A stretch of DNA of 63,969 nucleotides, filler included, from Reclinomonas americana ATCC 50394 (GCA_048213135.1; 17 parts of 17 records of this genome joined end to end with filler, not necessarily neighbours in it); one strand, 5' to 3'. Positions 588 to 63,805 are shown, numbered from the whole stretch's first letter. The notes: a model not told the origin generated them from the letters alone. Numbers and translations: made by a program.

Positions 588-3500
588 ATGTTCTCTGCGC
601 TCTCACAACTCGCGCGCGACGTCTTCAACACGGCCGACGACGAGGACGACGAAGGGCGTCGCTCGGTCGAGTCGACGACACCCGCGCAATCGCCACCCGT
701 GTCGCCCGTTGATGAGAGACGAAGAGAGGAAGAAGATGAAGAGGGTTTAGGTGGCGATAAGGTGGTGGTTTCGTCGCCTGCGCAGGCCTTGTTGATGCTG
801 CGATCGGTGTCTGCTGTGCATGTGGATGGGGGCGAGGCAGGGGAGGAGGATGGTGGGAGGAGTGGTAGGAGGAGGAGGGGAGAGGCGGGTGTGGTGGTGA
901 CTGGTGGAGGTGGTGGTGGTGGTGTGGCGACGGTGATGGGAGGGGCGGTGGGTGGGGAGGTGGAGGCGATGGTGAGTGGAGGGGGAGAGAGGAGGGGAAG
1001 AGGGAGGGGAGGGAGAGAGAGAATGGCAGCGAAGGCGAATAGCGAAAGGAGGCACAGGACGATTGAAAGCAGCGATAGAAAGCAGAGAGAGATAGAGAGA
1101 AGGAGGAAGAGAAGGCGCTATAAGAGGCTGAGAGCGAACGAGAGTGCCGGTAACAGGCTGAAGCTGCCAGATATCAACGGGCAGAGGAGAGGGAGAGATG
1201 AGGACAGAGAGAAAAAGAGAGGAAGCAAAAGGAGAGTGTCGTCGTCTCCCCAGTCTCTGTTTCTCTGTTTCTCTCTCTTGGCGAGGGCAGGCGCACGAAA
1301 AGTGCGAGAAAGCAGAAACTAAGAGAGACCACACACAGTGTACCAGTCGAAGCAGTGCGATTGTAACGAATGGAGGTGACGAGAAAGTTGAGCAGTGATA
1401 GTGCATCCGAGAGAAAGGAGGAAAGCAGCTCATCGCTCACTCTGCCTTTCCGTCGATAATCTCTCATTGCAATTCTTGTTGTCTCCACTTGTTGCTTCCC
1501 CCTTCTCCTGTAAGTGCACGAGGCGGAAAGGAGCGCTGAAACTGCAGAGAGTTTGTGAAGAGATCGCTCAATGGATGATACTCGTTGCGCCCTCACTCGC
1601 AACTCTTCCTGTTCGTGTCACTGCGTTCCGTTGCCTTCTCCTCCTTGTACATCTCTCTATAATTCTTGATGCCTCTCTCGTCATCCAAGTTGCTAACTGC
1701 ATCTCTCCTTCTCCCTCTCCCTCCCTCTCCCTTCCCCCTCCCCCTCCCCCTCCCCTTCCCCTCTTTCCCTTCGCAGATCGCCTCCCTCAAGCGCGAAAAA
1801 CAAGAAGCTCAAGAGGCCGCCCTACAAGCCGAGACTCGCGGCATGGATCTCGTGCACGAATACCAGCAACTCATCCGCGAAAAGGATGTTGCGCACACTT
1901 CCTCATCCCTCCTCCACCCTTTCCCCAGAACTCATCTTCCTTGCAGAACGAATGCGATCGCCTGAGCAAGCAACTCAAGGCCCTGCAGGGCGACTACGCC
2001 GCGCTGAGTGACGAGTGCTCCAGATGGAAGCGAGAGTGCGAGCAATTACGAGCAGCACCAATGCCCACCACCCCAACCGTGCCACCATCTCCCAATCCAC
2101 CTCCACCACCACCACCACCGACGTCATTGCCAGCAGCGGCGGACGGCCAGCCTCCACCAGCAACCGCATCCGCAGCAGCCGCAGCACCGTCTTCGGAGTG
2201 GATCGAGGTGTCGGTGGACGACGTACCACCAGCGGACGAGTCGGTGGCACCACCAACGTCGTCATCGGATGATGTGGCAGCACTCCGAGCAGAATTGATG
2301 CTGGCACAGCGCTCGCTTGCCGCCCTCACCCAGGTGTTGGTTCACGAGAGGTTTGTGTGTGTATGCTCTCGTCTCACCCGCCCCTCCTCTTCCACGCTGA
2401 CTTGTCCCTGTGTGAAGCGATCGCGTGGCTGTGCTCGGCGATGTGTTGTCGGAGACGGCGCATCCCATGAGCGCCGAACGGTCGATTGTCGAGTCGCTCA
2501 CTCTGTTTCGTCGCGCCCCATAACAAGAACGGTGTGGATCATGCACTCACTTCCCCTTCTTCGTCAGGAGTCTGTCGGTGGACGAGACAACAGACGCAGC
2601 ACTGGTCAAGACCAGAGCAGAATATGGCACGCTAATCGGAGCGATTCAGCTCTTCTGTGACACGCTGCAAGAGACAAAGCAGATGAACGAGAAACTGATG
2701 CGCAAGTTGGAACGATTGGAGAAGGAGAAGGCGTCACAGATCAATGACACGACAGCCGCCATGCTCAAGCAGACTGAAGGTTTGTTCTTCCCATTCCAAC
2801 GCAGCGCAAGAGTGTGCAGAATTCGTGAGCACGTCATGCTTTGCTTTCGTGGGTCCCGCCTCTTCTTCCCCTTGTTCCGTGTCCCTCCTTCTTTCGCATT
2901 CGTCCCCTTCTCCTCGGCCGCTTCTCCCCCCTGCCCCTTTTCCTTCCCCCTGTTCCTTCCCCCTGTTCCTTCCCCCTGTTCCTTCCCCCTGTTCCTTNNN
3001 NNNNNNNNNNNNNNNNNNNNNNNNNNNNNNNNNNNNNNNNNTTAATTAATTAANNNNNNNNNNNNNNNNNNNNNNNNNNNNNNNNNNNNNNNNNNNNCCC
3101 CCTGTTCCTTCCCCCCTGTTCCTTCCCCCTGTTCCTTCCCCCTGTTCCTTCCCCCTGTCCCTTTCCCCTGTCCCTTTCCCCTGTCCCTTCCCCCTGTCCC
3201 TTCCCCCTGTCCCTTCCCCCTGTCCCTTCCCCCTGTCCCTTCCCCCTGTCCCTTCCCCCTGTCCCTTCCCCCTGTCCCTTCCCCCTGTTCCTTCCCCCTT
3301 CTCTTTCCCCCTGTTCCTTCCCCCTTCTCCCTTCCTCCTTCATCCTTCTCCTTCATCACCCTTCTCCTCACCCCCCCCTTTATGCGCCTTCCGCAGAGCT
3401 GAGCGCCGTGAAGCGCGAGCGCGACAGCCTCAACAAACGCCTCTCGCGCCTCACCAAAACCGTCAGCGACATGGAGTCGACGCACATGGCCAGCTCGAAC

Positions 3501-4729
3501 TTGGAAAAGGAGTTTTACGTGCAGCGAGTGGCCCTCACCCGCGCCAACGAGGAGTTGGCGCGGCGCAACTTTGAGTTCCAAGAGCTGTCGATCTCCACCG
3601 AGGAGCAACTGAATGTGCTGCGTGCGCAACTGGCCAAGAAGCAGAGCGACCTGGAGGCGGCGACGTCGCGTGTGGAGGAACTGAGCAAGGTGACCGAGGG
3701 TGCACTGGCCACGCTGCAGACGCGGGTCGACGATCGCGACGCCGAAATCCGCACGCTGACCGGCAAGCTGGCGGCACGTGAACGCGAGCTGGCGGAGCGC
3801 GATCAGCGATCGCGACGTGTAGAGGACGAACTGCGCGCGTCGCTGGCCGACCAGGAGGCGCACGCGCAGTCGCTGAATGTGTCGCTCGCCAACTTGGAGG
3901 GCGTGCTGCAGCAGTTTCAGGTGGAGGAGGACATTCGGGTGCGCGAGAAGACGGTGGCGTTGCAGGCGACCATTCGGCGACTGGAGGACAAGGTGGCGGG
4001 CATGCAGACGGCGCTGCAGGCATTAGAGGTGGGTCAACAGGGAAAAGGAGCATTTCTTCTGCATACTGACTCTCCCTTTTGTTGCACAGAGTGTGAATGG
4101 TGAATTGTCAGTGTCGCGCGAGAGGTGTGCGGAGTTGGAGCGCACGGTGGCGAGCCAGCGCACGGAAATGTGGCGTCTGAACGAGTCGGTCGACGCACTG
4201 AATGCGGAGGTGTCGCGGCTGCTGCGCAAGCTCAATGAGGTGCTGATCGACAGCGACGTGGTGGACAAGGGTGTGGTCGGCCGCCTGCTGGTCTCATATG
4301 TGGGCAGCAAGGAGAAGGAGCGCCAGAAGGAGATGCTGACGATTCTCGCCTCCATGTTGAGTCTGAGTGAGGACGACAAGGAAAAGGTGAGTGCGGAGAG
4401 ACGCGCGGAAGAAGGGGGGAAGTGTGCTCACTCGTTCTCTTGTGCAGATTGGCTTGCGGAGGAAAACGCGTGGCATGTTGTCGAGCATTCTCGGTGTATT
4501 CTCGTTGGCGGGTGACAGCTCCGAACCGGCCAAGTTTCAGCCGCAAGATGTTGCGTTGTCTCCCTTGGGTGCGCCTTCCCTGCCCTTTTCTCATCTGTGC
4601 GTTGTGGTGCAGTCATTATCGGAGCTGTGGATGGAATTCTTGCTGGCGCGTGACAGAGAGAAGGAGTTAGATGCGGGCGTGGCGAGTGCCAGTGGTCTGC
4701 CACCGACTGCAGACGACGGTGAATCATGA
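588..4729 (+). CDS. Multi-exon coiled-coil golgin with C-terminal GRAB domain (GMAP-210/TRIP11/Rud3/GC3-4 family)
   Basis: N-terminus MFSALSQLARDVF, long heptad coiled-coil exons (1778-1887, 1947-2333, 3398-4028), then DVVDKGVVGRLLVSYV...KEMLTILASMLSLSEDDKEKIGL...SLSELWMEFLL, resembling GRAB plus GA1 motifs. Exons between 750 and 1777 are unresolved, and a gap lies in one intron. Confidence 0.75.
2925..3320 (+). repeat. Intronic ~13-bp pyrimidine minisatellite (CCCTGT(T/C)CCTTCC)n spanning an assembly gap
   Basis: Tandem units are directly visible on both sides of the spacer. Confidence 0.9.
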
Positions 4730-5205
4730 ATGAATTAGCTGGGAAGAGTGTCTCATTTGCCCTTGCACATCACAGACTGGGGGAGAAAGGCAAGTGTTAG
4801 TGAATTGACTGGGTGGAGTGCCTCTGCTTCTTCTACATCACAGACAGAGGGGAAAGGCAAGTGTGAGTGGTCTGCCGCCGTCTGCAGACGACAGTGAATC
4901 ATGGATTGACTGAAAAAGAGTGCCTCAGCATGTGCATCACAGTAGACAGGGACGGGTGATGAGCGGCACTGAAGATGGTGTGCCACCAACAACAGACGAC
5001 GGTGAATCATGAATGAATTAGCTGGGAAGAGTGTCTCATTTGCCCTTGCACATCACAGACAGGGGGTGAAAGGCGAGTGTGAGTGCTACAGACGACGGTG
5101 AATTGACTGGGTAGAGCGTGTCTCAGCTTGTGCACGGCAGACAGGGGAAAAGGGGAGCGCAAGCGGTCTGCCACTGACTGTGGACGACGCTGAATCATGA
5201 ATGCC
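4690..5205 (+). repeat. Degenerate ~100-bp tandem repeat derived from the golgin stop-codon/3' region
   Basis: GACGACGGTGAATCATGAATGAATTAGCTGGGAAGAGTGTCTCATTTGCCCTTGCACATCACAGAC occurs at ~4713 and ~4996, with degenerate copies at ~4888, ~5092 and ~5184. Confidence 0.85.
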
Positions 5206-5278
5206 ATAAGTGGGTCCCTTCACACAGCAGACAGATAATAACATAATGAGTGCAGTGCATTACGCGCGTGTGCGTGTC

Positions 5279-8200
5279 TCAGCCGCCCTTGTATCGCACA
5301 AAGCCGACGATATTCTCCTGCACATTCTCCAAGCAGTCCATGTCCTCCTCTGGCAAGTCTCCCGCCCGCGCTGCCATCTGCACAGCACATGTGAGCGAAT
5401 GCGTACTCAGGAATCTTGGCATTATCGGAAGACCAACCATTTGCTTGAACGGCTGCGCCAGCGACTTGAGCAACGCGTGCACATTCAACTCGCGGTACAA
5501 GCCATCGAGGTCATCATTGGCGAAAATGTCGATCAGCGAGTTGACGGCGTCGCCGACCACCAGCAGCAGCCCACATTGCGCAGCGTCCATCAGAACCGAG
5601 CACGTACTCTGTCTCACAAAGGCAGAAGTGAGTGCGCTAGACGGCACACCGCATCCACTCTGGACACGGTTACAAACCCGCAGCACCGCATCGCCGACAC
5701 TGCCCTTCGATGCCATTTGCCCGAGAATCGCCAGCGATTGTGCACGAGCGCGCTCCGTCTGCGCTGCGTCACTCGCCAGTGCGGCCAGCGCACTCATTTG
5801 ATCGGCGCTCTGGTGGTGGGCAAAAAAGGGGGTGAGCCTCCTTGCATTCCACTCTCCTCTTCACGATCGCACTCACCAACGCCGGCACTCGTCGCACCAC
5901 TCCGGAGATCAACTTCAACAACTCCTCGACCAACTGCGTGCGCTGCGACACGGCGAATCCTTGTGGCGCCGCCGCTGCACTGGCAATAGTGGCACCCTCG
6001 CGCGCAATCGCCCCGAAAGCAGCGTCCACCAGCGGGCTCAACAGGCCCGCCATGTCTGTGTGAGGTGGAGAGAAAAGGCATGTGAGCCAAGACGCCATCA
6101 GTATCGCTTTCCTCGCACACCTCGTCGTCTCTTCACAGCCACTATTGATGAAATGAGGAGGGAGGAGAAGGGAGGAGACGAGAGTGAGGACAGGAGAGTG
6201 AAGCAAGAAAGAGAATGGAAAGAGGGAAGAGAAGAGCAGGAGGACAAGGAAAAGTGAAGAGAAACAGGACAAGAGAATATATGAGAGGAGAAGAGCACTT
6301 CTTCTTCACTTCTCTTCACCTCTCCTCTTCTCTGCCATTTTCTTCTCTTCTATATTTTCTTTTCTCGTCTCTTTTCATCTCTTCTCTTTCATCTCATCTC
6401 TTTTCCTCAGCTCTTTGTCTCCTTCTCTCCTTCTCTCCTTCTCGCCTCAACCCTTCTCATCTCTTCTCACCTCTCCTTCCCTCACCTCTCCTTACCTCTC
6501 CTCTCCTCATGGCATCCCTTCTCTGCTCTTCTCCTTATCCCCATCTCCACTCCTTGTCTTCTCACCTCACCCCTCTCCTCCGCTCCCTTCCCCTCTCCTC
6601 ATCTCTTCCATTCTCTGCTCACTCTTCCCTCTCCTCTCCTCTCCTCTCCTCTCCTCTCCTCACCTCCCTCACCTCTCCTCCGCTCTCCTCTCTCCTCTCC
6701 TCTCTCCTCTCTCCTCTCCTCTCCTCTCCTCTCCTCTTCTCTTCTCTTCCATTCCTTTCTTCCATTTTTCTCTCATCTGTTGTCTTTTCTTCTCCCCTTC
6801 TCATATTCGCTACTTATTATCTCTTCTTATCTCTTCTCACATCTTCTCTCATCTTCTCTCGTCCTCTCTCACTCTCGCACCATCCCTCTCCTCATTTCTC
6901 TTCTCCTCTCCTCTCCTCTCCCCCTCGTCTCTTATCTCCTCATCTCTTCCATTCTCTGCTCTTCTCTTCCCTCATCCTCCCTCACCTCTCCTCCCCTCTC
7001 TCCTCTCTCCTCTCCTTCCCCCTCTCGTCTCCTCTCCCATCCCCTTCTCCCACTTCCCCTCTTCTCCCCCTTCCCCTAAATCCCCCTTCTCCCTTCCTTT
7101 CCCCAAACCCACCTGGCGCCTGGTACCACACCACGGCGGACACCAACACCATGGTNNNNNNNNNNNNNNNNNNNNNNNNNNNNNNNNNNNNNNNNNNNNT
7201 TAATTAATTAANNNNNNNNNNNNNNNNNNNNNNNNNNNNNNNNNNNNNNNNNNNNGGCCCGCGTCACGAGATCCATCAGCGTGGTGATCACCGAAAACTC
7301 AATATCGCTGGAGGCGCGAGGAACACCACCCTCCGACAAGTACGAGGTCAGCAGGGCGGCCGTGTGTGCCACCAGCCCATGCTCCGCCGCCGCCACCGCA
7401 CTCGCCAGCGGCGTCGGCTCCGCCTCCTCTCCCTCCACCTCAAAGCCGCACAGATTGGCCAGCACCTCCAGCGCGATGCGCTGTCCCTGAGCCTGCGTCA
7501 ACCACATCTCCACCGCCTCCTGCTCCGGCACGACCTCTCTCCTCTCCTCGCCGCCCTCGACAACCGGCGGCCGTCCCACGTGACTCAGAAACAGCGCAAG
7601 ATCGCGCGCCACCTCGCCATTGACCAGCGCCGCCAGTGGCAGCGTCGCCATGGTCGACACAGCATCGAAGGCCAGCACGTCGCTGAGCACGGCCAGCACC
7701 ACCGACACGAACGCGGGATTGGCGGGCGAATCGGCGCCCATGTTGACCAGCGTGCCAACACACGCACTGCGCAGCATTGGATTCAGCTGCGGATTGGCCG
7801 CCACGTCGCACAGCAGTGCGGCGGTCTCCGCCGAGGCCAGCGACGGGTCGCCTTCCGACAACGTCTGCAGCGCCAGTGCTGTACTTACACATGAGCTTGA
7901 GTGGGGGGAGACACCAGCACACTGTCATACCACAGACCTGCGGCCAGTGCCAATCCCTGATCCTGCGGCGCCGCCTCCACGTGCCTGACCAAGTGCAGCA
8001 CGCCGCCCGAGGCACAAAACGCAGCCGCACACTCCTCACTCTCCTCACTCAACAACTGCAACAGCAGCATGAGCTGCACGCCGACATCCGCCGCCTCCGC
8101 ATCCGCACGCGACACCTCCAATCGCCTTTCCGTGTGCAAAAACGACGCTCCCAGCAGCTGCAGTCCATCCGAGCGCATCACCGTTGCACATGTGGCCTCT

Positions 8201-8971
8201 GCGCTCTCCAACAGCACATTGCGCAACGCGCCTGCAGCACACGCGCGCACCACAAACGAGGTCGGGTCGCACAACAGCTTCAACAGTGCCTCCACTATGC
8301 GAGAGCAGTCGGGCAACAGCAGCACCTCGTGTGGTGTCGACGCAATGGCTGCGCAGGCAAGCTCACGCTCACTGGCATCAGCGTCCTCCAGCTGTGAGTG
8401 AGTAAAAAAGTGAGTGTGAGTGTGAGCGCGTTGTGCATGTGCATCTGCACCAAGACACAAAACACACTTTTTCACTCGTTGTCGAGCTTTTGCGTGCGTG
8501 GGAGTGAGGGAGAGTGTGTATGAGTGGGGGGAAAGTGTGCGTGAGAGAGTGAAAGTGTGTGCAAGTGAGCGTGAGTGAACGAGTGAGAAGTGTGAATGAA
8601 GTGTGCGTAAGTGAGTGAAAGAGTGTGCAAGTGAGTGAGGAGTGAGAGAGAGTGAGAGAGAGAGAGAGAGCGTGCAAGTGATAGAAAGTGAGTGAAAGAG
8701 TGTGCGTGAGAGAGTGAGAAGAGTCTATGTTTTGTAATGCTTGTGTCCATTACGCAACTCTGAGCAACACTGCACTGAGCACTTCAGCACTATCCTCCGG
8801 CACATTGCTGCCTCCGGTGCCCTTGTGCGGTGCAGGCAGAACGTCGGCAAAGCGATCGCCGCCTGCTGCAGCTGAGTGCCCGTTGATTTGCGACGAAGTC
8901 AGCAGACCTTCCGGGTGCGTGCCCTTGCGTTGCTCGCGGTTGCGTTGGTGGCGTGCCTTGGACTTGCCCAT
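5279..8971 (-). CDS. HEATR3: HEAT repeat-containing protein 3 / synportin Syo1 (uL5/uL18 import chaperone), multi-exon
   Basis: Basic N-terminus MGKSKARHQR, ARM/HEAT motifs (ASERELACAAIA; VRACAAGALRNV; QRIALEVLANLC), and C-terminal DAVNSLIDIFAND...NVQENIVGFVRYK resembling the HEATR3 end. GT-AG introns; one gap inside. Confidence 0.8.
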
Positions 8972-9036
8972 CGCTCTCTCCCTGACTTCGTCGTTGCACT
9001 CTTTACGTCCTGCGCCCATGGATTGTCAGACACAAA

Positions 9037-12000
9037 ATGGGCGCGAGATCCAGTGCGCCCATCTCGCACTCTCAATGCCTCTTCCCCGCCGATCTGACGC
9101 TATCCACCGCCACGTCACCGATCCTCTCACTTGCGCTCTCGCCTGTGGTCGACTACAGCGCCGCAGCAGGTCGATATCGACAACTGGTGGCGTGCGCGCG
9201 CAGTGACTCGATCCTCCTGCTCGATGCCGACGATCCACATCGCCCTCTCTTGCCCTCATCTTCCTCGTCGGCTGCTGGTGCATGTGGAGTGGCGCCACAA
9301 CATGAGCGCGTGGTGTTTGGCACGCTGGGCGACGATGGATCACTGATGATGGTGGCGGCGAGTGCGTCGCATGTGTGTCTGTGGGACGCCACGCGCGCGC
9401 TTGATCGCGATGAGGCTGCTGTGCTCAAGTGGAGTGTCCCCTGCGCGGCACACGTGTGGTCGCTGGCCATGACCAGCGATCTGGTGTTTGCGGGCGCGAG
9501 CGATTCGAGTATTCATGTGTTGCGGGCGGCGGATGGAGCGCAGGTGCGGCAAATGGATGGGCATTCGTATACGGTGGTGGCGTTGGCGATTACGGCGGAT
9601 GGGTTGCGAGTGGTCAGTGCGGCTGGCGATCGCACACTGCGTGTGTGGCAGGCGCAGACGGGCGCGCAGGAGCAGTGTTTGCAGGTCGACTCGGTGATTA
9701 TGAGTCTGTGCGTGCTGCGCACTGGCGTGAAGGTGATCACCGGTCACAGTGACGGCACAGTGCGACGGTACTCGTTGAGCAAGAACTCGCTGCGCCACAC
9801 CTACGGTGCCCACAAGAGTGCCGTGCATTGTGTGGCCGTCTCGCAAGACGACACGCTGATTGTGTCCGGATCGCATGGTGCGTCGTCGCACACATTCCCC
9901 CCCTCTGCCTCTGTCATTGTGCTCACTATGTCGTTTGCAGACGGAACGATTCGTCTGTGGGGCAAGCAACGCGAGCTGGTACACCTCAGCGGTCACACGG
10001 ACAGTGTGAATGCCGTGGCGATTTTGAAGTCGCGCAAGATCGTGTCTGGATCCAGCGACGGCACAGTGCGCCTGTGGGATGCTGGCGGTGAGTGTGTGTG
10101 TGAGTGTGATGAAGGTGCACGGCGGTGGTGGTGGTGGTGTTGACTTGCCATCGCAGCCGCCACGCGCAGCGAGCCACCGCCTTCGGGGTTGCGCGGTCCA
10201 CATTCGCTGCTGCTGAGAGAAGATTCGTCGTCACCGCCGCCGTCGCCATCGTCACCGCTGTCACACGGCAGTGGCTCTGGGTCGCAGCTGCTTGCGGCAG
10301 GGTCGTCGAATGCCTTTCGCGAGCACCACGTGGTGGTCAGCGACAGCGAAGGCGACGACAGCGATGTGGGTGGCGAAGGCGATGATCGGCGGCCTGCCCG
10401 TGTGGATGCCGTGCACAGTGATTCTGTGCACGACGATGACGATGGACGGAGACCGTCGCGAGCCAGTGACGAAGAGGAAGGCGAGGAGGAGAACGAGGAG
10501 AGGGAAGTAAGAGAGGAGCTGGACCAGGACGATGAAGATGACGGCGGCGACGAGCAAGGAGGTGATGAAGAGGAGGAGGAGGAGGAAGAGGAGGAGCCCG
10601 CATCACCACCGCCGCAAGTGGCTCCACTGGCACTGACGCCGCGAGTCATGGCGACCTCTAACTCGGCTTCTGCTGTTGCTGGTGGTGGTGGTGGTGGTGG
10701 TATCGCGCGACAACTCTCGCCACCGGGTGCAGTGACGGCCCTGGTCGCGGCACGTACGCTGTCGCTCTCCTCGCTGCCGCTGCCTGCATCGCCAATGAAC
10801 ACTGGCACCGTGTTGCTGTCGTCGCCACGATCGCACTCGGTCGACATGAACGAGTTGGTGGCTCTCAACAACGAGTTGCGGGAGGAGCGCGCCAAGCAGC
10901 AGCTGCTGGCGCAGGATCTGGAGGAGGCGACACGTGCGTCGCGCATGTGGCAGCAGCGGGCGGAGGTTGCCGAGGAGCACGCAGCGCATGTGGCGTCGTC
11001 GGTGGAGTTGCTGCGCGAATCGCTGCAGGTCGAACAGGAGCGGCGAGTGGAACTGGAGCGGGAGGTGGAGCGGCTGCAAAGACTACTCGGGCACTTGGAA
11101 GGTGCGTTTGTTCATTCGTTGTGTGGCTCGACGAGTGTCTTGTTAAAAATTGCGGTGGCAGCGGGCATCCCCGGCTCGTTGCGGAGATTCGACTGGCAAG
11201 AGTTGGTGACTGCCACGAACGGATTCGATGAGCACTTTCTGGTCGGCTCCGGCGGGCAAGGTCGCGTGTTTATCGTGATGCACGAGGCGAGGAAGATTGC
11301 CATCAAGCTCATCGATGCTGACGCTCCGTGGGCGCTCGAGTCGTTTGCGCACGAGGTGTTCCCATTGTGTGAACGACGACGACTTGAAGTTGCAGCGTGA
11401 GCTCACACGGCGTTTTGCAGATTGACACTCTGGGCCAGTTGCAGCATCCGCGCCTCGTACCGCTGCTGGGCTATGCCGTTCTCGAACCGGACAGCAGGCA
11501 TCGCTGCTTGGTGTACAAGGCATTGGAGTGCGTGTGGAGTGGCGCGTGGTGGATGCGGTTGGCATATGGTCGCTGACTCTCTCTCTCTCTCTCTCTCTCT
11601 TGTGAACAGGCGACTCAATCTGGAGGTGCGCCTGTTGCATCCGCCGCCGGATGTGCCGCCCATGACGGTGTTGCAGAGAGTGCGAGTGGCGCATGGTGTG
11701 ATTGAAGGGATTGCGTTTTTGCATCAGGTGAGGGGCAAGGAGAGGGAGGGTGGAAGGGAGGGAGGGAGGGATGGAGAGGGAGACAGAAGAGAAAGGAGGA
11801 AGCTGGGAGAGAGAAAGTGGAAGAGCGAGTGGCAAGCACATGCGTACAGTGAATGACAGGGAGGGAGGGAGAGAGAGTGGGAGGGATGGAGAGGGAGACA
11901 GAAGAGAAAGAGGAGGAAGGTGGGAGAGAGAAAGTTGAAGAGCGAGTGGCAAGCACATGCGTACAGTGAACGACAGGGTGGGAGGGAGAGAGAGAGGGAG

Positions 12001-12863
12001 ACAGAAGAGAAAGAGGAGGAAGGTGGGAGAGAGAGAGAGTAGAAGAGCGAGTTGCAAGCACATGCGTACAGTGAACGACAGGGTGGGAGGGAGATGAGGG
12101 TGGGGGAGAGGGAGATAGTGAATGCTTCGTGGTTAGTGGCACAAAGAACTCTTCGTGTCGGTGCTGCATGACTCTGGAGTGTTTCCAAAGAGAAGCAACG
12201 TCTGTCTGAGTGATGCCGAAAAAACGTGATTGTTTGGAGAGCAGTGTTATACTACGATTGCTTACACGATTGTTCCTCCTCTTCCGTGTTTCTCTGAATC
12301 ACAGCACGATGTCGTCCACCGCGACCTCAAGCCGTCCAACATTCTGCTCGACTCGCGCATGGAGCCGTGCCTCGCCGACTTTGGCATTGCGCGGTTCTTT
12401 GCCGACGACGAGACGCACATTCACACAGAGCCGGCCGGCACTCGGTTCTATCTCGATCCGCTGGCCGTTCGTTCGGGAGAACTGCGCAAGTCGGCCGATG
12501 TGTACGCGTACGGCGTTGTCTTGCTGCAGCTGCTGACCAGTCGGCAAGCGGGCGAGGTGACCGACATGGCCTCGACGTGGGAACGCTCGTTGGCCTCTGT
12601 GAATGTGATGACTGAGATCGACATGAGTGCTGGACTGTGGCCTCCACCAGTCGCTCGTCACATGCTGGAGCTCGGTGTTTCGTTGCGTCGGCGGTGGGAG
12701 GCTGATGAGAGAGAAGGTGGACTCGCTGTTTGATGCTTGCGCACATTGCAGGTGCATGTCGCTGAACACGGACATACGACCAGATGCCGACGCGGCTCTG
12801 CTGGTCATGGAGGAGATTCAACAGTGGTGTCACGGCTCTGGCTTCACGGAGCCAGTGGTGTAG
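9037..12863 (+). CDS. WD40-repeat + acidic linker + coiled-coil + IRAK/Pelle/RLK-type protein kinase, predicted N-myristoylated
   Basis: MGARSS start; WD repeats (GHSYTVVALA..SAAGDRTLRVW; GHTDSVNAVA..SGSSDGTVRLWD). After splicing the kinase reads LRRFDWQELVTATNGF, GSGGQGRV, IAIK, LQHPRLVPLLGY, LVY, HRDLKPSNILLD, DFG, ADVYAYGVVLLQLLT. Seven GT-AG introns keep frame. Confidence 0.85.
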
Positions 12864-13016: not shown

Positions 13017-14477
13017 TCAGTCGGAACCAGCGAGGATAACCTCAGTGGCCGAAGAGGACAATCGCTCCTTTGCTCTCTCCACCGAGGTGGAGGAGGAGGA
13101 GCTGATGGTGTTGGCAGTTGCGCGAATCACAACACCACAGATGCTGAAGTGTGCGTTGATGTACGCTGGGCACTGCAGCCAGAAGACTCGGATAACGTGA
13201 TCGTCGTCATAGGTGACAACGTAGCCGCGACGGTCGTCGTCGAGCTGTGTGTGTCACAGGAAAGTGAGTGCGTCGATGATATTGATGACATCAGATTGCA
13301 CATTACACGCAACTCTTGTGAGCACCATATCTGCTGCGCTGGGCCATTCGCCACTATCCAACTCGATCTTCAGCGTGCACAAATACCGCTTCCGCTTTCC
13401 GTCTGCAATCCGAGTGGCCATCATCGAGTACTCTCCATCCACAACAGCCTCCACCTCCTCGTCGTACTCGGAGAACACACGACCTGATTTGCAGTGCTTC
13501 GTGTAAGTGTCGACAGCATACGCAGCGCAGTTGCACACTTACAAATCTACACACCTTTGAATCCAGCAGAGCTGCTTTCTGTTTGTGGCTGGACTGTGTA
13601 GATCATGGAACCGCGGTTTCCGAAATCGATCTCGAATCTGGGTGGGTTGCGTCGCAGGCGTACTCTCGAATTGATGTAGCAGAAAACGCCAGTGGCTGGT
13701 AGAATCGGAGAAGAAGAGTAAGCATGTGCACACGCTCGAGAACACGATAAGTGCACACACTCACCTGTCTCGGCATCCCTGACTACCGCGAACTTCAACA
13801 CGCCGTGGGCGATGAAGCCCACTTCATATGGCNNNNNNNNNNNNNNNNNNNNNNNNNNNNNNNNNNNNNNNNNNNNTTAATTAATTAANNNNNNNNNNNN
13901 NNNNNNNNNNNNNNNNNNNNNNNNNNNNNNNNCTTGTTGGCGATCACTGGTAGATGCTCATTGTTGTGTATGGATCAGTGAAGTTTCTATTATTATTACG
14001 AATTCGTCCTCCATCCACATGTCCACAGGAGACTCGGTGCCGAAAATGTGCGGACACACAACGCATGCGTGCAACAACAGGCGAGGCGCGCAAAAGCCGT
14101 AGGAAAGGGCCATGACTGTGCTGCTTCGAACCGTCTGCCACGCAAAGCAGTGATGAGCAACGAGTGTCAAAGTTTTCTGCTCCTCCCCCCCTCTCTCTGT
14201 GTATGTACATGTGTGTCTGTGTGTGTGTGTGTGTGCGTGCGTGCTGTCAACCTGTGCTCCGCGTTTCCCATGTGTGAAGCGAACGCACCCCGTTTCGCAG
14301 AGCAGTGAGCGAGAAGACGACTTCTTCACGCGTGTCGACACTTCGGATCACATCCTGCATCGTCTCTCTGGTGACCATGCTCTTGCCTTTCACGAAGCCA
14401 TTGGCATACCGCTTGTGGATTCCACGGATGCGATCTTCAAACTCGTGCAGGGCTCTTGCCGACACGCCACAACCCAT
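13017..14477 (-). CDS. Hypothetical multi-exon protein, possibly dually acylated (MGCGVS); continuity across the gap is inferred
   Basis: Exons in 13017-13832 splice in frame through GT-AG introns to a TGA at 13017. An upstream exon starts ATG GGT TGT GGC GTG TCG at 14477 and ends at a GTGCGT donor. No family recognised. Confidence 0.5.
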
Positions 14478-15506: not shown

Positions 15507-16165
15507 ATGTCGGGCGGAGGGCGCGATGACACGCTCAGCAACCAGCGCTTCTCGCTGACCACTCCACTGGCACACACCGGAAGCAGCGGCAGCAACAGAC
15601 AAGGAGAAGACAGTGGAGGCAGCGGAGGAGGAGGAAGTGGACAGGGCTTCGGCCTCCTGCAGCAGGGCATGGTTGCCATTGAGCTGGCACCACTGGGAGC
15701 AAGTGCGAATGGCGCTGGCGGTAATGGTGGAAGCCCGTCCAGTGGAGGTGGGAGGAGAGTGTCGGGCATTGGACTGGGAGGTGCTCCTGCGTCACCGGAG
15801 GCAGTTGCGTGTGATTCTCGCACACGCGCGCACACACACGCACACGCACACGCACATACATACACGCAGACACCGCATGTGCGTTGAGCGAGCTTTGCAG
15901 AGAGGAGTGACTGTGTGAGATCAATCTCTCACTCAGTGACATTCTGCACTCTCCTCACTCACTCCTCACTCGCTCCCTCAGTGGAGGACTATGCGCGAAT
16001 TCCACGGTGGCATCAAAGAACAGTTGCGCGAACACCATCTCTCTCATTCTCCTCTCCTCGCTCACCTCTCTCTCTCTCCGTTCTCACAGATGGTACCAAC
16101 CGATCCCGGAGCTCATTCTCACCGACAACAACCGCCCGCTGCCGTCGTCACTCATACAGCAGGGC
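15507..16165 (+). CDS. 5' part of a hypothetical gene (Gly/Ser-rich N-terminus), truncated by a gap
   Basis: ATG at 15507; donors at 15804 and 16023 and acceptors at 15981 and 16089 give ...SPEA-WRTMREFHGGIKEQ-WYQPIPELILTDNNRPLPSSLIQQ with GC-rich third positions. Confidence 0.5.
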
Positions 16166-16770
16166 ACGCGAGCGTCCATTCTCCTGTTGCGTCTGCCCTT
16201 TCTCTCCCTCCTTCATTCACTTCCTCTCTCCCTTGCTCCGTTCTTCATTTCCTCTCTCCGTCCCTCGCCGTTCTGTTTCGCTCTTTGCCTCGCTTCTTCT
16301 CCTCTCCTCTCCACTCCTTTCCCTCTCCTCTCCTCTCCACTCCTTTCCCTCTCCTCTCCTCTCCTNNNNNNNNNNNNNNNNNNNNNNNNNNNNNNNNNNN
16401 NNNNNNNNNTTAATTAATTAANNNNNNNNNNNNNNNNNNNNNNNNNNNNNNNNNNNNNNNNNNNNGGGAGTAGGCGCAGCACGAGGAGAAGGAAGAGTGG
16501 GGCGCAAGAGACCTGCACATGCACGATCGTGATTCACACACACGCACGCACGCGCACACAGTGAAGGACGTGCGCGCGTGTGGTGTCATTGCATTTCACG
16601 TGCGTTGCATGGCGTGCAGGTGGGAGGAGGAGGAGGAGGTGGAGAAGGCAGGCGCGTTGTCGGAAGAGTGGACATGCACATGCACACACTGACTGACTCG
16701 CAAAAAAGAGTTTTTCTTTCTTTCTTTCACGTGGAAAGAAGAGATTGTGTGTGGGTGTATGTGGTACGCA

Positions 16771-16835
16771 CCGCCACCACGTCCGCCGCCAAAGCCACCG
16801 CCACGTCCGCCGCCAAAGCCACCACGACCGCTCAT
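16771..16835 (-). CDS. First exon of an RGG/GAR-box protein (fibrillarin- or GAR1-like); remainder lost in the gap
   Basis: MSGRGGFGGGRGGGFGGGRGG followed by a GTGCGT donor. Confidence 0.6.
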
Positions 16836-17322: not shown

Positions 17323-20300
17323 TCATTGCGGATCCCCTCCAGCCCTCTTCATCTCCCCCACTCCTTCCTCCAACGGCAGCGGCTGCTGCTGTCGCCGTTG
17401 CTGCTGTCGGTACTCGCAAGCCGCCAGCATATTCTCCGCCGTGATGGTCCACCGATCTTGCGGGCCAAACACCTCTCTGCAGCTGGAGACGCACTCGATC
17501 ATCAGCGTCTCCGCCTCGGCAACCAGCTCACACCGCAGCAGGCAGATGCCAAAGTTGATACACGTGTACAGCGTCGACTCGTGCTTGTCGCCCAGCACCT
17601 CACGTCGCACCGCCAAGCACTCGACGAACAGTTCGGCGGCCTCCGCCACCGATGCCACGGTGCGTTGTCGGTCAAGGGTGACTGCCAGGTTGTTCATCGC
17701 CGTGAGAGTGTCGGGGTGGCGGTTGCCGAGCACACGTCTCCGCGCAATCAGCACCTCGCGCTCGAGCTGAATGTTCTCCGCCGCCCGCAGCGGGTCCTGG
17801 ATGTTGGAGGCGAGGTTGCCGAGGGAGACCAGAGTCTCCAGGTGCTCTTCGCCGAGCACCCGCCGCCGCAGTTCCCAGCACTGACGATCCAGCACCTCTG
17901 CCTCTCCATGCTGCTTGCGGTTGAAGTGGTGCTTGGCGCGGTACACGAGCGTGCGCAAGCTGTCGGGGTGCGCCTCGCCCAGTGTGGCGCACTGCTGGGC
18001 GTGGCACTGCTCCAACAACCCCAAGTCGTCCGTCACAAATGCCAACCACATCACGCACCGAAAGGCATCCATGGTCTCCAGCGTCGACAAGAAGCGCTGC
18101 CGCTCCATGTACAGCTGCCACGCATGGTGTCGCATCATCTTGCAGCGGCTCCACTCCCGCGACATCTCGTACAACCAGGCACAACACGAGGCCGCCGCCG
18201 TCAGCAGTGCACCATGCGTTGCTGTCGGTACATCACGCACACAGTGCGTCACCCGCTGCGCGAGAAGCGAGGCCGTCGCCAGCCCAAAGCCCTGCGGCGG
18301 CAGGAAATTCGATCGGCTCTGCTCACCAATCCACTCAATCGCCCCACACTGCAGCATGACGGTGCGCTCCCCAATGGCGGTCTCGTCCCACATGGCCGTG
18401 TCCTCCGCTAGTCGGCGCCACAGCGTGTGTAGCACGCCGAGAATGTCGCGTGCCACGAGCTGCGCACCATCGCTGTCCTCGCGCAAATCGATCGCCGTCA
18501 GCACGCAACAAACGAGCCGCAATACGAGCTGTTGCGTCCGTGCCACGGCCTTGCCGCTGCGAGTCACAATCCACCGCGCAATCTCGTCGTGCACTCTGTA
18601 CTCCTCCGCCACGTTGCCCTCGCGCACATGCTCACCCGCGAGAATGCGAGCCACGCTGTCTGAACTGCCACTGATATTTACCGTCACCAGTGTCGACGCC
18701 GCCAGACTCTGCAACACTTGCGCCACCCTCTCGCCACCACCGCCACCGCTGCCACCAACCGTCAGCAGGCGGCTACGCCGCGAGCGCACAGCCTGCTCCT
18801 CTTCCACGTTCAACTCGTCAAACTGCAATGCTTCGCCCACCAGATCCGGCGCACGCTGTCGCCTCTCCTTGGCCAGCTCGTGCAGTCGCAGGCAACGCAC
18901 CGATTGACTCAGTTCCAACAACCGACCCACATGCTCCTCATACTCCATCACCACATCTTCCGGCGCCGCTGCCGCCGCCGCCGCCTCCTCCCCTTCCTTC
19001 CCATCGTCCACGTCGGGGATCGCGCTCAGCACGCCGAGCGCCACTCGTGCCAGCGCCAGGGTCACCGGCAAGCCGAGTTCTTTGCAGGCCGTGATCAGTA
19101 CCAGCATGCGGCGAGCCTCCGTCGTCTGCGACATGACGTTGCGCTCGAGAAGACGTGAGAGCGCGTCGCCGCTAATGTCGCTCAGTACGGCCTCGAGTTG
19201 TGCGCCCGCCAGGTCCGCGGGGGATTGGGAGAGAAGCCAGCTGTGAAGGGGGTAGAGGGGGGGAAGGGGGAAAAGGGGGAAAGGGGGAGAGGGGGGAAGG
19301 GGGGAAGGGAGAGGGTGAGAAAAGAGGGGGAAAGAATGAGAGCAAGTGTGCGTGTGAGTGAAAGAGAGAAAGAAAAAGAGGAAGAGCGGAGGGAGCGGGA
19401 GAATGGTAGAAACACAAACTGCGAGACATAGAAAGCAAGAATGGGAGAAAGAGAGGGCTGGAGAGAGAAGGGTAGAAGAAATGTAGCGAGAAAGGAAGAA
19501 TGGAAGACAGGAAGTAGGAAGGAGAGACGAATGTTTCTCTCCAACTCTGTCTCATTTGCAATCCCCTGGTGTGTGTCTCTACTCACCCCACACAGGCACT
19601 CACTCGCAGCGCGCTATTGTGCTCCTGCCCGTGCTCCAGCGCGCGCACAATTTGCTGTCGCACCTCATCCGACGCCACCTCGCGCAACCTCTCCTCCACC
19701 AGCTGCGCCACATCGCCGCTCTCCACATCCTCCACCCGCACGCACTCCACCTCCACGTCGTGCCCCACAATCACGCCATGAATCTCGTCCGCCACCTGCC
19801 CGTGGCGACTCGTGACCACCACAACGGGCGCCACCATGCCATCTGTCGACAGTAATCAGCGAATCACCGACCTGCTCACTCTCTCTTTCCTCACGCGCGC
19901 ACCACCAGCACACTGAACGACGTCTCGCACTTGCTCCGCGGAGCCGACATTGTCGAGCACCATCACGCCGCTCGACGCATGCATCAAGTGTCGCAGGAGA
20001 CGACGCGAAGGCGCCACGTCTCCACTCGCCAGCAGCGAGTCCACCTGGCTGGCCATTCTCCGACCCTCTGCCTCGTCCGCCCGCATCTGTGCCGCCACAA
20101 AGGCACGCAGCAACTCGCTGACGGCACCGGCCGCCTGCCACACACGCGAGATGAGACCAAGGGGAAAGGGGAGGAAGGAGTGACTGCGCCCACCTTTACA
20201 TGCTCTTGCGCGTCAGCCACGTGACCGCGCATCTCCACCGACACGGCGGAACCGTTCCAGTGGTCAGTGGCACTCAACTCGCTCACCAGCAGCTCGGCGA

Positions 20301-20656
20301 GGAATGACTTGCCGCTGCCGCCGTCGCCGGTGAGAACGACGATGATGGGGTGGTGTGCTGTGAGAAGGGGAGGAGGAGGGGTAGGGTGAGAAGACAGAGA
20401 GAGAGCGAATGGAAGCAACTGTGAGAGAGACTACTTCGTGAGCGAAGAACGACATTAGACAGCTCATGAGCAGAGGATTGAGAGACACTGAAGAGTGACT
20501 GAAAGAACGAGAAGGCAAGTTTACAGAGAGCGAGAGTGAGGCATGGAGACAGTAAGCTCTGAGAAGTGAGCGCTAATCGGAGAGACAAGACGCAGCTGAG
20601 CAGCAAGGATGGCCGCGACAACGAACGATCGGAGAAATGCAGAGGAATGCAAGAGA

Positions 20657-20688
<32 letters not shown>

Positions 20689-20757
20689 CAGAGAAGAGAG
20701 AGAAGAGAGAAGAGAAGCACAGGAGACAGGTTGGGGCGAATCGCAAAGACACAATGT

Positions 20758-20803
<46 letters not shown>

Positions 20804-21007
20804 NNNNNNNNNNNNNNNNNNNNNNNNNNNNNNNNNNNNNNNNNNNNTTAATTAATTAANNNNNNNNNNNNNNNNNNNNNNNNNNNNNNNNNNNNNNNNN
20901 NNNCGCAATGAGCGGCTCAACGCGAACTGCAGCACAAAGAGTGAGTGTGAGAGAGACAGAAAACAAGGCAAACACGGCCGACAAAAGTCACCTTCGCTCT
21001 CGCTCAT
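17323..21007 (-). CDS. STAND/NB-ARC-like P-loop NTPase with C-terminal TPR (kinesin-light-chain-type) repeats; NLR-like architecture
   Basis: Walker A VVLTGDGGSGKSFLA, Walker B GVMVLDNV, sensor VVVTSR, NSALRVSACVGWL, and five repeats of the type RRRVLGxxHPDTLxxxxNLA. The start at 21007 (MSESE/VRVEPLIA) lies across a gap and is tentative. Confidence 0.75.
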
Positions 21008-21462
21008 GAAAAAAGCTAAAAATGCGCGCGGCGACGTTCATCCACACTGCGGACTGATCTGTTTTGCAGTGCCCCTTGTGCGTGTATGTGAGAGCAACAG
21101 GCACTGCATTGCATTGGCGGACATGGAGAGACGACAGCAGCAGCAGCAGCGCGTGAGAAAATGCAAAATGAGTAACGTCGACGTTTCCGGGAAAGAAGAC
21201 AGGAGAAGAGAGGAAACAGCAGTAGCGGTAGTGAGAAGCGGAAAAACATGAGGGCACGCGGAAGGTGCTTCCGTCGTTGTTTGCCTCGACGTCCCACACG
21301 AGTCCCACAGACAACTTTCTCGGAGTCGGGGTTCCTCACGCAGACACACTCCTTGCTGTCATCGCCCGCGTGCGTGTCTGTCATCCTCTTACCTCCGCCG
21401 ATCTCCGCCTCCGCCTTTCTTTGCTCGCTTGTGTGCGCGTTTGTGTGTGTGAGTGATCGCTG

Positions 21463-24400
21463 ATGATGAGCGGTGGCGGCCCCGGGGCCACCACTCGTCG
21501 CCCGATGTTGGGTGCCTCGGCCTCTGCACCTCCGTCCTCCTCCTCGTCATCGTCAGGTGGTCCGCTGAAGAAGATCAGTATCAAACCATTCAAGGGTGAG
21601 ATGTCCCACTTTTGTCACTTGTTGCAAACACACACACACGCACACACACACACACACACTCACATACACTCACATTCACTCACTCTCTCTGTCTCACACA
21701 CACATTGATACACTCAAGCACTCACTCGCACACTCTATCGCACACTATTGCACACACACAGACACTCACTCACTCGCTCACACACCCACACCCACACACA
21801 CTGAGCTGACTTCTCTTCTGTTCTTTGTGCCTCTCAGTGCAACCAAAGGTTCCAGAAAACTTCTTTGAAGTGACTTGGGCCAAATTGAAGGACGCAGTGG
21901 GCGCCATCTTTTGCAAGCGAAAGGTTTGTGTGTGCGCGTGTGTCTCTGTGTTGTGGTTGGAATGCGCATGCGAGGAGGAGTGAGAGCGGGAATTGGCGCG
22001 ATTTTTTGATGTGATACTGATTGTATTCAAAGAGCTCTGTGGTGACGCGTTTTTTTCTTCGCTCAATGGAGTGTGTCGTGTGAAGTTCGCTATTGGGGCG
22101 TGCCTATCGCTTTAGTGGAGTAGTGGCGGGGTGGCGCCTGACAGTAGCTATTTCTCGCTCTTGTGGATTGGGGGACACAACGCCAGTCATTCCTCACTTG
22201 TTGTTCACACTCTCGCTTGGCGCACTGTTTACTCGGGTTCTGAATCACACGCCTCTTGCGCTCTGTGTGACACCTGGCACCTGTGGTCTTCTCATGTCGT
22301 TCTCTCTCTCATTCACTCTTGATCGTGCTCTTTTCTCACTCTCGCTTGGCGCACTGTTTACCCGGGTTCTGAATCACACGCTCCTTGTCCTCTGTGGCAA
22401 CTGTGGTCTTCCCATGCCGTTCTCTCTCTCTCACACACGCACTCTCGCACTCTCGCACTCTTGTGACGTGCTCTACTCGCACCGAGCCTCGAGTGACGGC
22501 GGACAGCTCTCACTGGTGTACTTGTCGCTCGCACTCTCTGCTCTTGGCGCACTGTTCACTGGTTCTGAATCGCTCGCGCCTATCACTTTGACTCCATCCC
22601 TCCTCTTTCCTTCTCCCTCTCTCTCCCTCCCCCTCCTCCCGCTTCTCCTCGCCCCCCATTCTCACCCTTCCCCTCTCTCCCCCTCTCCAGACAAACGCCT
22701 CATCGGAGGAGCTCTACCAATCAACCAAGGACCTCTGCCTTCACAAGCACGGCGCACAGTTGTACGCACGGCTGCGCGACGAGTGCGAGCAGTTCGTGGT
22801 GCAGAAGCAAGTACGACTGGTGCACCAGGTGGGCTCCGAGATCAACGGGTTCCTGATGGCCGTGGACGAGACGTGGAATGATCACGTGAATCAGATGGTG
22901 CGTGTTCTCGCGCTGCTCCCTTTTCCCCCGCCCTTCTTCCCTCTCTCACCCCCATCCACTCCAGCGGCACATTCGTGACATTTTCACCGAGCTCATGCAC
23001 TCGTACGTGCGACAAAACACCGGCGTGCGTTCGATCTGGGACATGGGCATGCAACTATTTCGGGATTTGGTGATCCTGCAGCCGGAGATCCAGCGGGCGT
23101 GTGTCAGTGCACTGTTGCAGCTGGTGCAACGGGATCGCATGGGCGAGACGGTCAATCGATCGCTGCTGAAGAGCGTGACGCGCATGCTCATTTCGTTGCA
23201 AGTCTACGGCNNNNNNNNNNNNNNNNNNNNNNNNNNNNNNNNNNNNNNNNNNNNTTAATTAATTAANNNNNNNNNNNNNNNNNNNNNNNNNNNNNNNNNN
23301 NNNNNNNNNNTCCACTTCTCTCCACTTCTCTTTTCTTCTTCTCTTCTTCTCATCTCGTCACTTACCTTCTATTCTCTCTTTTCTTCTCTCTTCCCTTCTT
23401 TTCTCTTCGGTCCTCATCTCTTCTCTTGCTGCTGCTGCTGCTGCGCAGTGTGGTTTTGTGCGCTTGTCGTACACGGCGACGGTCTCCTCTGTTTTTCTCT
23501 CTGCTCTTGCGGTCTTCTTTTTCTCTTGTTTTTCTTCTATTCTCTTGCTGCTGCGCAGTGAGGATGATTTGTGCACTTGTCGTGCGCATCAGCGATCACA
23601 GTCCTTCAATTCTCTTCTCTCCTTTCTATTCTCTCCTCTCTCCTCTCAATTCTCCCCCTTCTCTTCTCTCCTCATCTCTTATCCTCTCCTCTCTCCTCTC
23701 TATTCTTTCCCCTTCTCTCTTCTCTTCCCTTCATTTCTCTTTGTCATCCCTTCTCTTTCTTTTCCCTTCTCACTCTCCGTCACCGCGCAGGGAGTGGGCG
23801 GTGCCATTGTCATGGACCCCGAACGAGACCCGAACATGGTGCAGGATCTGCTCGATTTCAAGGACAAGCTCGACCGCATCCTCGTGGACGCGTTCGACAA
23901 GCACGACGACTTTACATACACGCTCAAGGTTCGTTTTATGATCACGTTGACTCTCCATCGTTGCTGGTTGCTAACACGCGACGGCAGGAATCGTTTGAGA
24001 ACTTCATTAACCGACGCCAGAACAAGCCGGCCGAGTTGGTGGCCAAGTACATTGACAAGCTGATGCGCTCGAAGAGCAAGGTCGCCGACGTGGAGATGGA
24101 CGCACTGATGGATCGCTTGTTGATTATCTTCCGATACATTCAAGGTGGGGGCGCACCGATGCTTCAACATCTCGTGTGTGTGGCGTCTCACCTTCCACCC
24201 GCACAGGCAAGGATGTGTTCGAGGCCTTTTACAAGAAAGATTTGGCCAAGCGGCTGCTCCTGGGCAAGACCTCGTCATACGAAGCCGAACGGTCGATGAT
24301 CACCAAGCTCAAGACCGAGTGCGGTGCCGGCTTCACCTCCAAGCTCGAGAAGATGTTTGCCGATATTGAGGTGAGGGGAAGCGGGGGAAGGGGACGAGAA

Positions 24401-25603
24401 AGGGAGAGGAGAGAAGGAGAGGAAACATGCATGGTGCATGTAGCAGCAAGATGGCAAGTGCGGAGGGAGAGTGGCACAGAGAATCGATAAGTGTTAAATG
24501 TACAAGAAAAGGGAGAGAGAAAGTGAGAGGAGAGAGCGTGATGGAGAGGAAACATGCATGGTGCATGTAGCAGCAAGATTGCAAGTGCGGAGGGAGAGTG
24601 GCACAGAGAATCGATAAGTGTCAAAGGTACAAGAAATAGGGAGAGAGAAGGAGAGCACGATGGAGCGCAGCACGTGCGGTGCATCACAGTATGATGGGTG
24701 GGCGTGGCTAGTGCAGAGACCGCAGATTTGAGAAGTGTGGGATGAACGAACACGGGGAAGGATTTAGCCAGAAGGGAGGAAAGAATGTCTTGCTGGGTAG
24801 CTACTGAGTAAGAGCAAGAGGGAGGCGCGACACACAAAACAGTGAGGCGCAGCGCCGCAGAGCAACGAGTGTGCTCGTTTGTGGCTGAAGGCAGTGCCCC
24901 GCCTTTGCTCCTCTGCTCACACGCTTTTGCTCTCCCCACACAGGTCTCCAAGGACATTGTGGCCGGCTTCAAGCAGACGCGCGAATACTCGACGTACGAC
25001 TACGATCTCACCGTGAATGTGCTGACCACTGGCTCGTGGCCACCATACCCGGCAGTGACGGTCAAGCTCCCCGACAATCTGGCACGCGGCACCGACATCT
25101 TCACCAAGTACTACACGCTGAAGCACAACGGTCGCCGACTGCACTGGCAGCACACGCTAGGTGCGTGCCAGCTGAAGGCCTACTTCCCCAAGGGTCGCAA
25201 GGAGCTGGAAGTGTCGCTGTTCCAGGTGCGTGTGTGTTGGAGAGAATGAGCTGTCTCAACTGGTGACTGACCGACTGTCGGTTACAGGCGGTGGTGCTCC
25301 TGCTCTTCAACGACCGCGAGGCGTGGGCCTTTGCCGACCTCCTCGTTGCGACGCAGCTACCAGCTGCCGAACTGAAGCGCACTCTGCAATCGTTGTCGGT
25401 GGCGAAAGTCAGACCACTGCGGAAAGTGCCACATGTTGCGTTTCGCGGGAGCGGGAAAGGGTCACTGTCTTCCTTTTCTCTCGTCCCCTCAGTTCGCTCT
25501 CACTTGCCTGTCCGACGTGTTGTTCATGTGTCTTCGTGTCTTGTGTGATTTCTTCTCTACACACCTCGCGCGTTGCCTTTCTTCGTCGTCTCTCTGTCTC
25601 TCC

Positions 25604-25668
<65 letters not shown>

Positions 25669-25791: not shown

Positions 25792-25847
<56 letters not shown>

Positions 25848-63766: not shown

Positions 63767-63805
63767 GTTCCGTGTGAATGAGGGAGAGTTGGAGAGGGAG
63801 AGGGA

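Follow-up and report, generated by a model that had tools for sequence, protein, structure and literature searches.

A recurrent GTTGCG class of 5′ splice sites that U1 may read one base out of register

Introns in the 63,969-nt stretch of Reclinomonas americana ATCC 50394 DNA analysed here (the window, meaning the whole stretch) appear to begin repeatedly with the hexamer GTTGCG. The sequence suggests that GTTGCG(T/C) is a second, genuine class of GT-AG 5′ splice sites (donors), found at about 1 in 5–8 introns and most likely bound by the U1 small nuclear RNA (snRNA) in a register displaced by one base. A real, recurrent class of GTTGCG donors is likely on the evidence of the curated gene models, and to the complete reading, with the displaced U1 register included, we give about an even chance of being right. 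The class is discrete, in that a single hexamer recurs and not a continuum of related sequences. It was first proposed in an initial annotation, which located GTTGCG(T/C) at eight positions and a GTTCCGT at a ninth. All nine motifs are present (Table 1), and G is absent from both -1 and +5 at every one of them, as had been claimed.

Concentration of GTTGCG at intron starts

With a flat donor model, a Viterbi gene finder returned mostly noise. Since such donor-blind automatic models failed, exon chains were curated by hand for each gene from frame maps and sequence, and a script checked that every spliced coding sequence (CDS) was open. The curated set comprises 39 introns in 9 genes, two of which are split across the linkers that join the contigs of the window. 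The acceptor was CAG in all 39 introns, a CTNAY branch motif mostly lay 14–28 nt 5′ of the acceptor, and 23 of the introns were 59–88 nt long. In length (59–70 nt for five of them), branch motif and CAG acceptor, the GTTGCG introns resemble the rest of the set.

GTTGCG is an ordinary word in the window and, in these gene models, is strongly concentrated at intron starts. The concentration was measured on all feasible GTs, that is, every GT in phase with a curated acceptor and located between 60 nt upstream of the curated donor and the first in-frame stop, a count that is independent of which donor is chosen. Among the 136 feasible GTs, GTTGCG occurred in 8 of the 39 curated introns, whereas the fraction of all GT sites that it represents (52/8,131) predicts 0.87. 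As a control, 2,000 sets of 39 exon-internal pseudo-donor windows with matched sizes gave a mean GTTGCG count of 0.31 and a maximum of 3. When the three introns defined by the motif (4550, 15804 and 16023) were removed, the count was 5/36 against 0.82 expected (P=0.0016). The sense strand of the curated genes carries 17 copies of GTTGCG, eight of which are at intron base 1, eight exon-internal and one intron-internal. The description of the class as mainstream is thus fair within the window, where it accounts for 5/36 to 8/39 of the curated introns.

The firmest single case is the donor at 25435 in the cullin-4 gene, where homology strongly supports an intron start. The C-terminus of this cullin is 68% identical to its closest match in the protein collection, and a profile of 77 full-length homologues was used to score the 18 in-phase GT/GC donors up to the first in-frame stop, with the acceptor at 25952. 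The 25435 donor came out on top with a gapless 404.1 bits, which agrees with the earlier assignment of this donor from cullin-4 spacing. The runner-up was a GC at 25438 (397.9 bits, 6.2 below 25435), and the nearest GT rival, GTGCCA at 25426, reached 391.0 bits (13.1 below), introduced a 3-residue gap and lost a conserved proline; the remaining donors scored lower still. The exon end at 25434 had 0 exact 30-base matches in the metagenome contigs scanned.

At the other sites the evidence is graded. The golgin intron at 1888 shifts the frame, read-through meets a stop and the spliced CDS is open. Just two in-phase GTs, 1852 and 1888, are feasible, which argues well for 1888 as the intron start, and the remaining signals are normal, with a CTNAY motif 13 nt from the 3′ end. 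In the kinase gene, the C-terminus of the kinase can be reached only through a frame shift. A total of 466 GT/GC-AG models were scored against a profile of 116 kinase segments, and the model with the 12682 donor ranked 1/466 with 129.9 bits; a canonical-looking g/GTGGGA at 12694 (the slash marks the exon–intron boundary) reached 125.9 bits. With this small margin the profile moderately favours 12682, and the branch motif of that intron is atypically distant, at 47 nt. Frame and homology together point to the GT as the probable intron boundary for 25435, and they are consistent with it for 1888 and 12682.

In the HEAT-repeat gene, an intron is required at 8758 because an in-frame stop directly follows GTTGCG; there are three other feasible in-phase GTs, at 8770, 8782 and 8803. 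A word-based search found no homologues of this gene, and the Protein Data Bank (PDB) held nothing relevant. In the unnamed gene around 13313 the three introns measure 69–71 nt, and each has a CTYAC branch motif and a CAG acceptor. Its 13313 intron contains an in-frame stop, and a rival g/GTGCTC (13325) lies 12 nt upstream. Neither Pfam nor Atlas gave a homologue for this gene, and an exhaustive HMMER search gave just one spurious bacterial repeat protein. At both 8758 and 13313 the sequence speaks with moderate force for an intron start.

The last three GTTGCG introns are putative. The one at 4550 has an intron-like appearance, its branch motif lying 20 nt from the CAG. The stretch is in frame and stop-free within the open reading frame (ORF) 4391–4729, and therefore the reading frame provides no evidence for splicing there. 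In the gene with 15804 and 16023, three frames are all open and the codon score is ~0, so that the frames place no constraint on splicing. The 15804 intron has an in-phase alternative, t/GTGCGT at 15879, and the 16023 intron is intron-like: it contains CTCAC motifs, its pyrimidine fraction is 0.88 and its acceptor is CAG. Reading frame, which the initial annotation took to support several of the sites, supports 1888, 8758, 12682 and 13313 and lends none to 4550, 15804 and 16023. A third GTTGCG(T), absent from the initial annotation, is found in the gene of 15804 and 16023 at 16186 (+), where its coding-like sequence stops and a CT-rich stretch starts; this copy is a possible additional member of the donor class. 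At 63767, the contig ends before any acceptor.

Table 1. Introns and motifs considered in the window, with positions counted from its first base (slash, exon–intron boundary)
Feature	Coordinates	Strand	Donor	Intron length	Details	Support as intron start
Golgin (GRIP-domain) intron	1888..1946	+	gat/GTTGCGC	59 nt	acceptor CAG	good (few feasible GTs)
Putative golgin-tail intron	4550..4612	+	gat/GTTGCGT	63 nt	proposed because of motif	weak (appearance)
HEAT-repeat (SYO1/HEATR3-like) gene, first intron	8392..8758	-	aga/GTTGCGT		spliced CDS open	moderate
Kinase gene (WD40/coiled-coil/IRAK-like), last intron	12682..12751	+	ttc/GTTGCGT	70 nt		moderate (small profile margin)
Unnamed gene, third intron	13245..13313	-	aga/GTTGCGT	69 nt		moderate
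Putative intron, unnamed low-complexity gene	15804..15981	+	gca/GTTGCGT		motif-defined	weak
Putative intron, low-complexity gene of 15804	16023..16089	+	aca/GTTGCGC	67 nt	motif-defined	weak
Cullin-4 intron	25435..25952	+	cat/GTTGCGT		span includes linker 25669-25768	strong (homology-anchored)
Prolidase intron, related pattern	38403..38482	-	aag/GTTCTGT		spliced CDS open	
GTTCCGT	63767..63773	+			end of leucine-rich-repeat-like ORF, codon score 37.7	weak

Donor profile and pairing with U1

The 31 curated donors other than GTTGCG were taken as the main class. Its two most conserved positions, the very ones that are lost in the GTTGCG donors, are -1, with G in 30/31 donors, and +5, with G in 26/31. 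At -2, A (21) and T (6) predominate, +4 shows no clear preference and +6 is T in 20/31. The commonest hexamers, GTGAGT and GTGCGT, occur 6 times each, in line with the initial description of these two as the common donors. The main class is itself unusual, with its nearly constant -1G, its lack of preference at +4 and, at +3, G in 24/31 donors and A in just 1/31 (T 4, C 2).

Several donors without the full consensus could be fixed by homology. Three consecutive exons of the Rpt5 gene correspond to residues 212–275, 276–315 and 316–426 of 8amz_M, and this contiguity fixes the donors GTAATG (28755) and GTGACG (27781). Likewise, two prolidase exons match residues 380–424 (+4 query residues) and 429–475 of 5m4g_A contiguously, which fixes the donor GTTCTG (38482). 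This prolidase donor equals GTCTGT, as found at 29243 (-) and 7937 (-), plus one T, with the -1G kept; the displacement of GTTCTGT against GTCTGT is by one base, the same as that of GTTGCGT against GTGCGT.

The GTTGCG donors have a distinct profile on both flanks. G at -1 was found in 0/8 of them compared to 30/31 other donors (P=1.5e-7). Their -1 base was A in four, T in three and C in one, so that A or T occupies -1 in 7/8, which resembles -2 of the main class (A/T in 27/31). At +7, a position outside the motif that was searched for, T was present in 6/8 GTTGCG donors, compared to 6/31 other donors (P=0.006) and 10/43 non-donor copies of GTTGCG (P=0.008). This rate was indistinguishable from that of T at +6 in the main class (20/31), in a small sample of n=8. 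With -1 behaving like a normal -2 and +7 like a normal +6, both flanks look like a consensus displaced by one base. The initial annotation had described the core as displaced by exactly one base, and A/GTTGCGT is in fact the main-class AG/GTGCGT slid by one.

Pairing was modelled as the number of hydrogen bonds in each register to the standard U1 5′ end given in PMC4856993, with the U1 of the organism assumed to be standard. In the canonical register the GTTGCG donors averaged 8.0 hydrogen bonds, compared to 16.9 for the other 31 donors and 11.5 for all 8,113 GT sites, and are therefore worse than an arbitrary GT when read normally. In the +1 shifted register they averaged 14.0, and with the +3U bulged 13.6; the corresponding means for all GT sites were 8.6 and 11.0. 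In this model, displacement by one base thus brings the GTTGCG donors close to normal donors. The rise from 8.0 to 14.0 on moving from the normal to the +1 register, which holds for a standard U1, is what the shifted-register recognition suggested in the initial annotation would predict.

In the mechanism that we propose, the U1 5′ end would pair with GTTGCG donors one base out of its normal register, either with +1G paired to C9 (shifted) or with +3U looped out (bulged). Cleavage would still take place before the GT, at a position set later by U5, U6 and Prp8. A U1 reading displaced by one base is a plausible and the most economical mechanism, as it fits both flanks. We infer that splicing occurs at that GT at all eight sites, that U1 has a standard 5′ end and that the displaced register is the one in use. 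The two displaced options make different predictions. In the human bulge +2/+3 register, as PMC4856993 describes it, a U after the GU can bulge so that +4 to +7 pair like +3 to +6. The GTTGCG donors resemble such sites in that their bulged score comes near their shifted score. The bulge register keeps the -1G:C9 pair, however, and should favour -1G, which no GTTGCG donor has; the shifted register is favoured for this reason. For the prolidase donor the bulge fits best (17 against 12 canonical), so both registers may be in use.

Shifted and bulged registers between the 5′ splice site and U1 are experimentally established in human cells, according to PMC4856993 and PMC9311317, both of which credit the +1 shifted register to Roca & Krainer 2009. 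As described in PMC4856993, human +1 shifted sites are cut at GU, pair poorly in the normal register and are restored by a move of one base, with +1G taking the place of -1G and the core displaced one base into the intron. The GTTGCG donors share the pairing pattern and the displaced core, and are probably cut at the GT as well. Unlike the human core AAGT, theirs is GCGT, and unlike the human sites, which are rare exceptions, they would represent 13–21% of curated introns as judged from sequence. The human prediction in PMC4856993 counted 4,270 of 201,541 sites (2.1%) as noncanonical in any register, in an analysis that took +5G sites as canonically paired.

In mammals, reading of 5′ splice sites by U1 out of register has so far been known only as a rare rescue mechanism. 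If the present reading is true, register flexibility can become a normal and evolvable part of the splicing code, used at 1 in 5–8 introns of a free-living lineage. It would also provide a natural system for how the cut stays at GU while U1 pairs elsewhere, and in genomes of this kind, gene finders trained on a single donor matrix would get a sizeable fraction of the genes wrong. Neither GTTGCG donors nor a lineage with frequent displaced-register donors was found among the papers listed in full-text literature searches, which are weak evidence of absence.

Alternative explanations

Several findings weigh against a GTTGCG class read by a displaced U1. As a bare hexamer, GTTGCG has 52 copies on both strands compared to a mean of 47.0 (standard deviation 6.8) in dinucleotide-preserving shuffles of the window, and 26 of 100 shuffles reach 52; taken as overall hexamer frequency, the idea that GTTGCG is commoner than base composition predicts did not hold up. 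The Poisson P value is uncalibrated for hexamers picked post hoc, as 17.7% of null sets contained some hexamer with P<=3.8e-6, and therefore only the pre-specified GTTGCG count is valid. The eight exon-internal copies are evidently unused, one of them with T at +7. The eight donor sites are confined to the first 26 kb, a part that contains 29 of the curated introns, and none is found in Rpt5 or prolidase, whose 10 introns are homology-anchored; the share of 13–21% may therefore be too high. Two other approaches failed: a ‘coding drop’ hexamer test lacked power (1.6-fold for GTGAGT, 2.5-fold for GTTGCG, P=0.12), and a scan for short introns under the strict requirement of 25 open codons per side returned 28 candidates that included, of the claimed sites, only 1888.

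The donors may also have been mis-called. The introns would then be real and mostly cut at nearby GTs, and the recurrence would come from choosing among ambiguous sites. In-phase alternatives do exist at 5/8 sites, those with the best supported or required introns, with rival donors at 13325, 8770/8782/8803, 1852 and 12694, the last of them canonical-looking and just 4 bits worse. Three of the eight introns (4550, 15804 and 16023) were proposed from the motif itself. Moreover, the lack of -1G would often be expected from random sequence, since 0/8 does not differ significantly from the 11/43 non-donor copies that have it (P=0.18). These points also count against the displaced-register reading, and mis-calling at individual sites is possible. 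As a general explanation it is unlikely, although it is the alternative we take most seriously. The count over any feasible GT is still 5/36 to 8/39 against ~0.8 expected, with no null set above 3, the cullin-4 profile puts 25435 13 bits above the nearest GT, and the +7T is enriched against non-donor copies. Mis-calling fails to explain the enrichment, the cullin result and the +7T signal, and the alternative donors have no common motif or fixed offset.

A slightly less probable explanation is that the spliceosome here needs little beyond the GT, with GTTGCG permitted as a weak site and spread by chance or mutation bias. The introns are short, every acceptor is CAG and the branch motif is mostly nearby, at 14–28 nt, all of which would suit such tolerance. 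This spliceosome does tolerate poor +5/+6 positions, as in the homology-verified donors GTAATG, GTGACG and GTGCAG, so that a special register may be unnecessary, a further point against the displaced-register reading; GTTCTG, also verified, and the curated GTGTTC lack +5G as well. These weak donors all keep -1G, however, which the GTTGCG donors never do, and tolerance predicts varied weak sites rather than eight of one hexamer with a preference for +7T.

Somewhat further down in probability, a variant or second U1, or altered U6 or U5 contacts, could pair with GUUGCGU in a normal register of its own. The discreteness of the class, a single hexamer rather than a continuum, would fit this. There is also precedent in Entamoeba and Mastigamoeba balamuthi, for which bioRxiv 10.1101/2022.06.08.495308 describes U1 candidates whose pairing sequences have altered to suit the atypical donors of these protists. 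The donors in that study resemble those of the window as protist non-standard donors, of GUGCG type with C at +4 (compare GTGCGT here). The difference is that in Entamoeba and Mastigamoeba the entire donor set moved with U1, whereas here two classes stand within the same genes. The same source reports that Thecamonas and Mamiellales have a standard U1 although C occupies +4, and the GTTGCG profile is already accounted for by a standard U1 that pairs in a displaced register. No U1, U6 or U5 snRNA was detected in the 63,969-nt window at the Rfam gathering threshold (0 matches), and at E<=1 the same window yielded nothing beyond microRNA-like matches below that threshold, located on CT/GA repeats.

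A bolder version of our reading is improbable to nearly the same degree. It holds that there are two parallel major-type codes, AG/GTNNGT and N/GTTGCGY, the latter served by a second U1 variant or by an obligatory, selected shifted register. If true, such a two-code lineage would have a third spliceosomal intron class beside the U2-type and U12-type.

It is very improbable that these are GC-AG introns starting three bases further on (exon ending GTT/GCGT), which would add one valine. Because an offset of three bases leaves the frame intact at all sites, the frame by itself is no argument against this reading. Both sites that can be scored decide against it, as 25438 falls 6.2 bits below 25435 in cullin-4 and 12685 falls 2.8 bits below 12682 in the kinase gene; such donors would also have T at -1, with no likeness to the main consensus. 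The GTTGCG introns are like U12-type introns in forming a discrete second donor class beside the major class in the same genes. They are unlike them in that their branch and acceptor features match those of the other 31 introns, and GTTGCG(T/C) bears no resemblance to the U12-type donor consensus; a U12-type assignment was rejected. An origin from mobile ‘introner’ elements was also rejected, as by eye the eight introns have nothing in common beyond the hexamer.

Other features of the window

The window consists of 17 contigs of ~1–8 kb joined by 16 identical artificial linkers, each made up of 44 N, TTAATTAATTAA and 44 N (at 2998–3097, 7156–7255 and 14 further places). The cullin-4 and HEAT-repeat genes cross linkers with their parts in the correct order. 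The DNA is eukaryotic and rich in introns, with a GC content of ~52–60%. Pfam searches on open frames identified a GRIP-domain golgin, a SYO1/HEATR3-like HEAT-repeat protein, a TPR protein, a cullin, a fusion of WD40 with an IRAK/Pelle-like kinase, an AAA ATPase, a RAD51 paralogue and an M24 peptidase; PDB matches identified the ATPase as Rpt5 and the peptidase as prolidase. The WD40–kinase fusion appears to be a single gene at 9037–12863 (+), in which a WD40 propeller, an acidic/coiled-coil linker and the IRAK/Pelle-like kinase form an uncommon domain combination.

A unit of ~8 kb is present about three times at ~42700–62800. On the + strand these units contain homeobox-like ORFs, in which a WFQNAR-type motif occurs, and on the - strand GTTGCG recurs at matching relative places (44020/44099, 51921/52000 and 60083/60162). 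At 49732 and 58000 lie paralogous copies of a repeat that share 94% identity, differ by indels and have a non-coding look; they were uninformative. Tandem repeats of 105–171 nt occur within long introns of the kinase (11743–12115), cullin-4 (24416–24649) and Rpt5 (28409–28746) genes, and long (CT)n, (CA)n and (GA)n tracts lie beside many contig ends. A WD40-repeat ORF of 402 codons without an intron is located at 61602–62807 (-); its score was low under a codon model trained on other genes.

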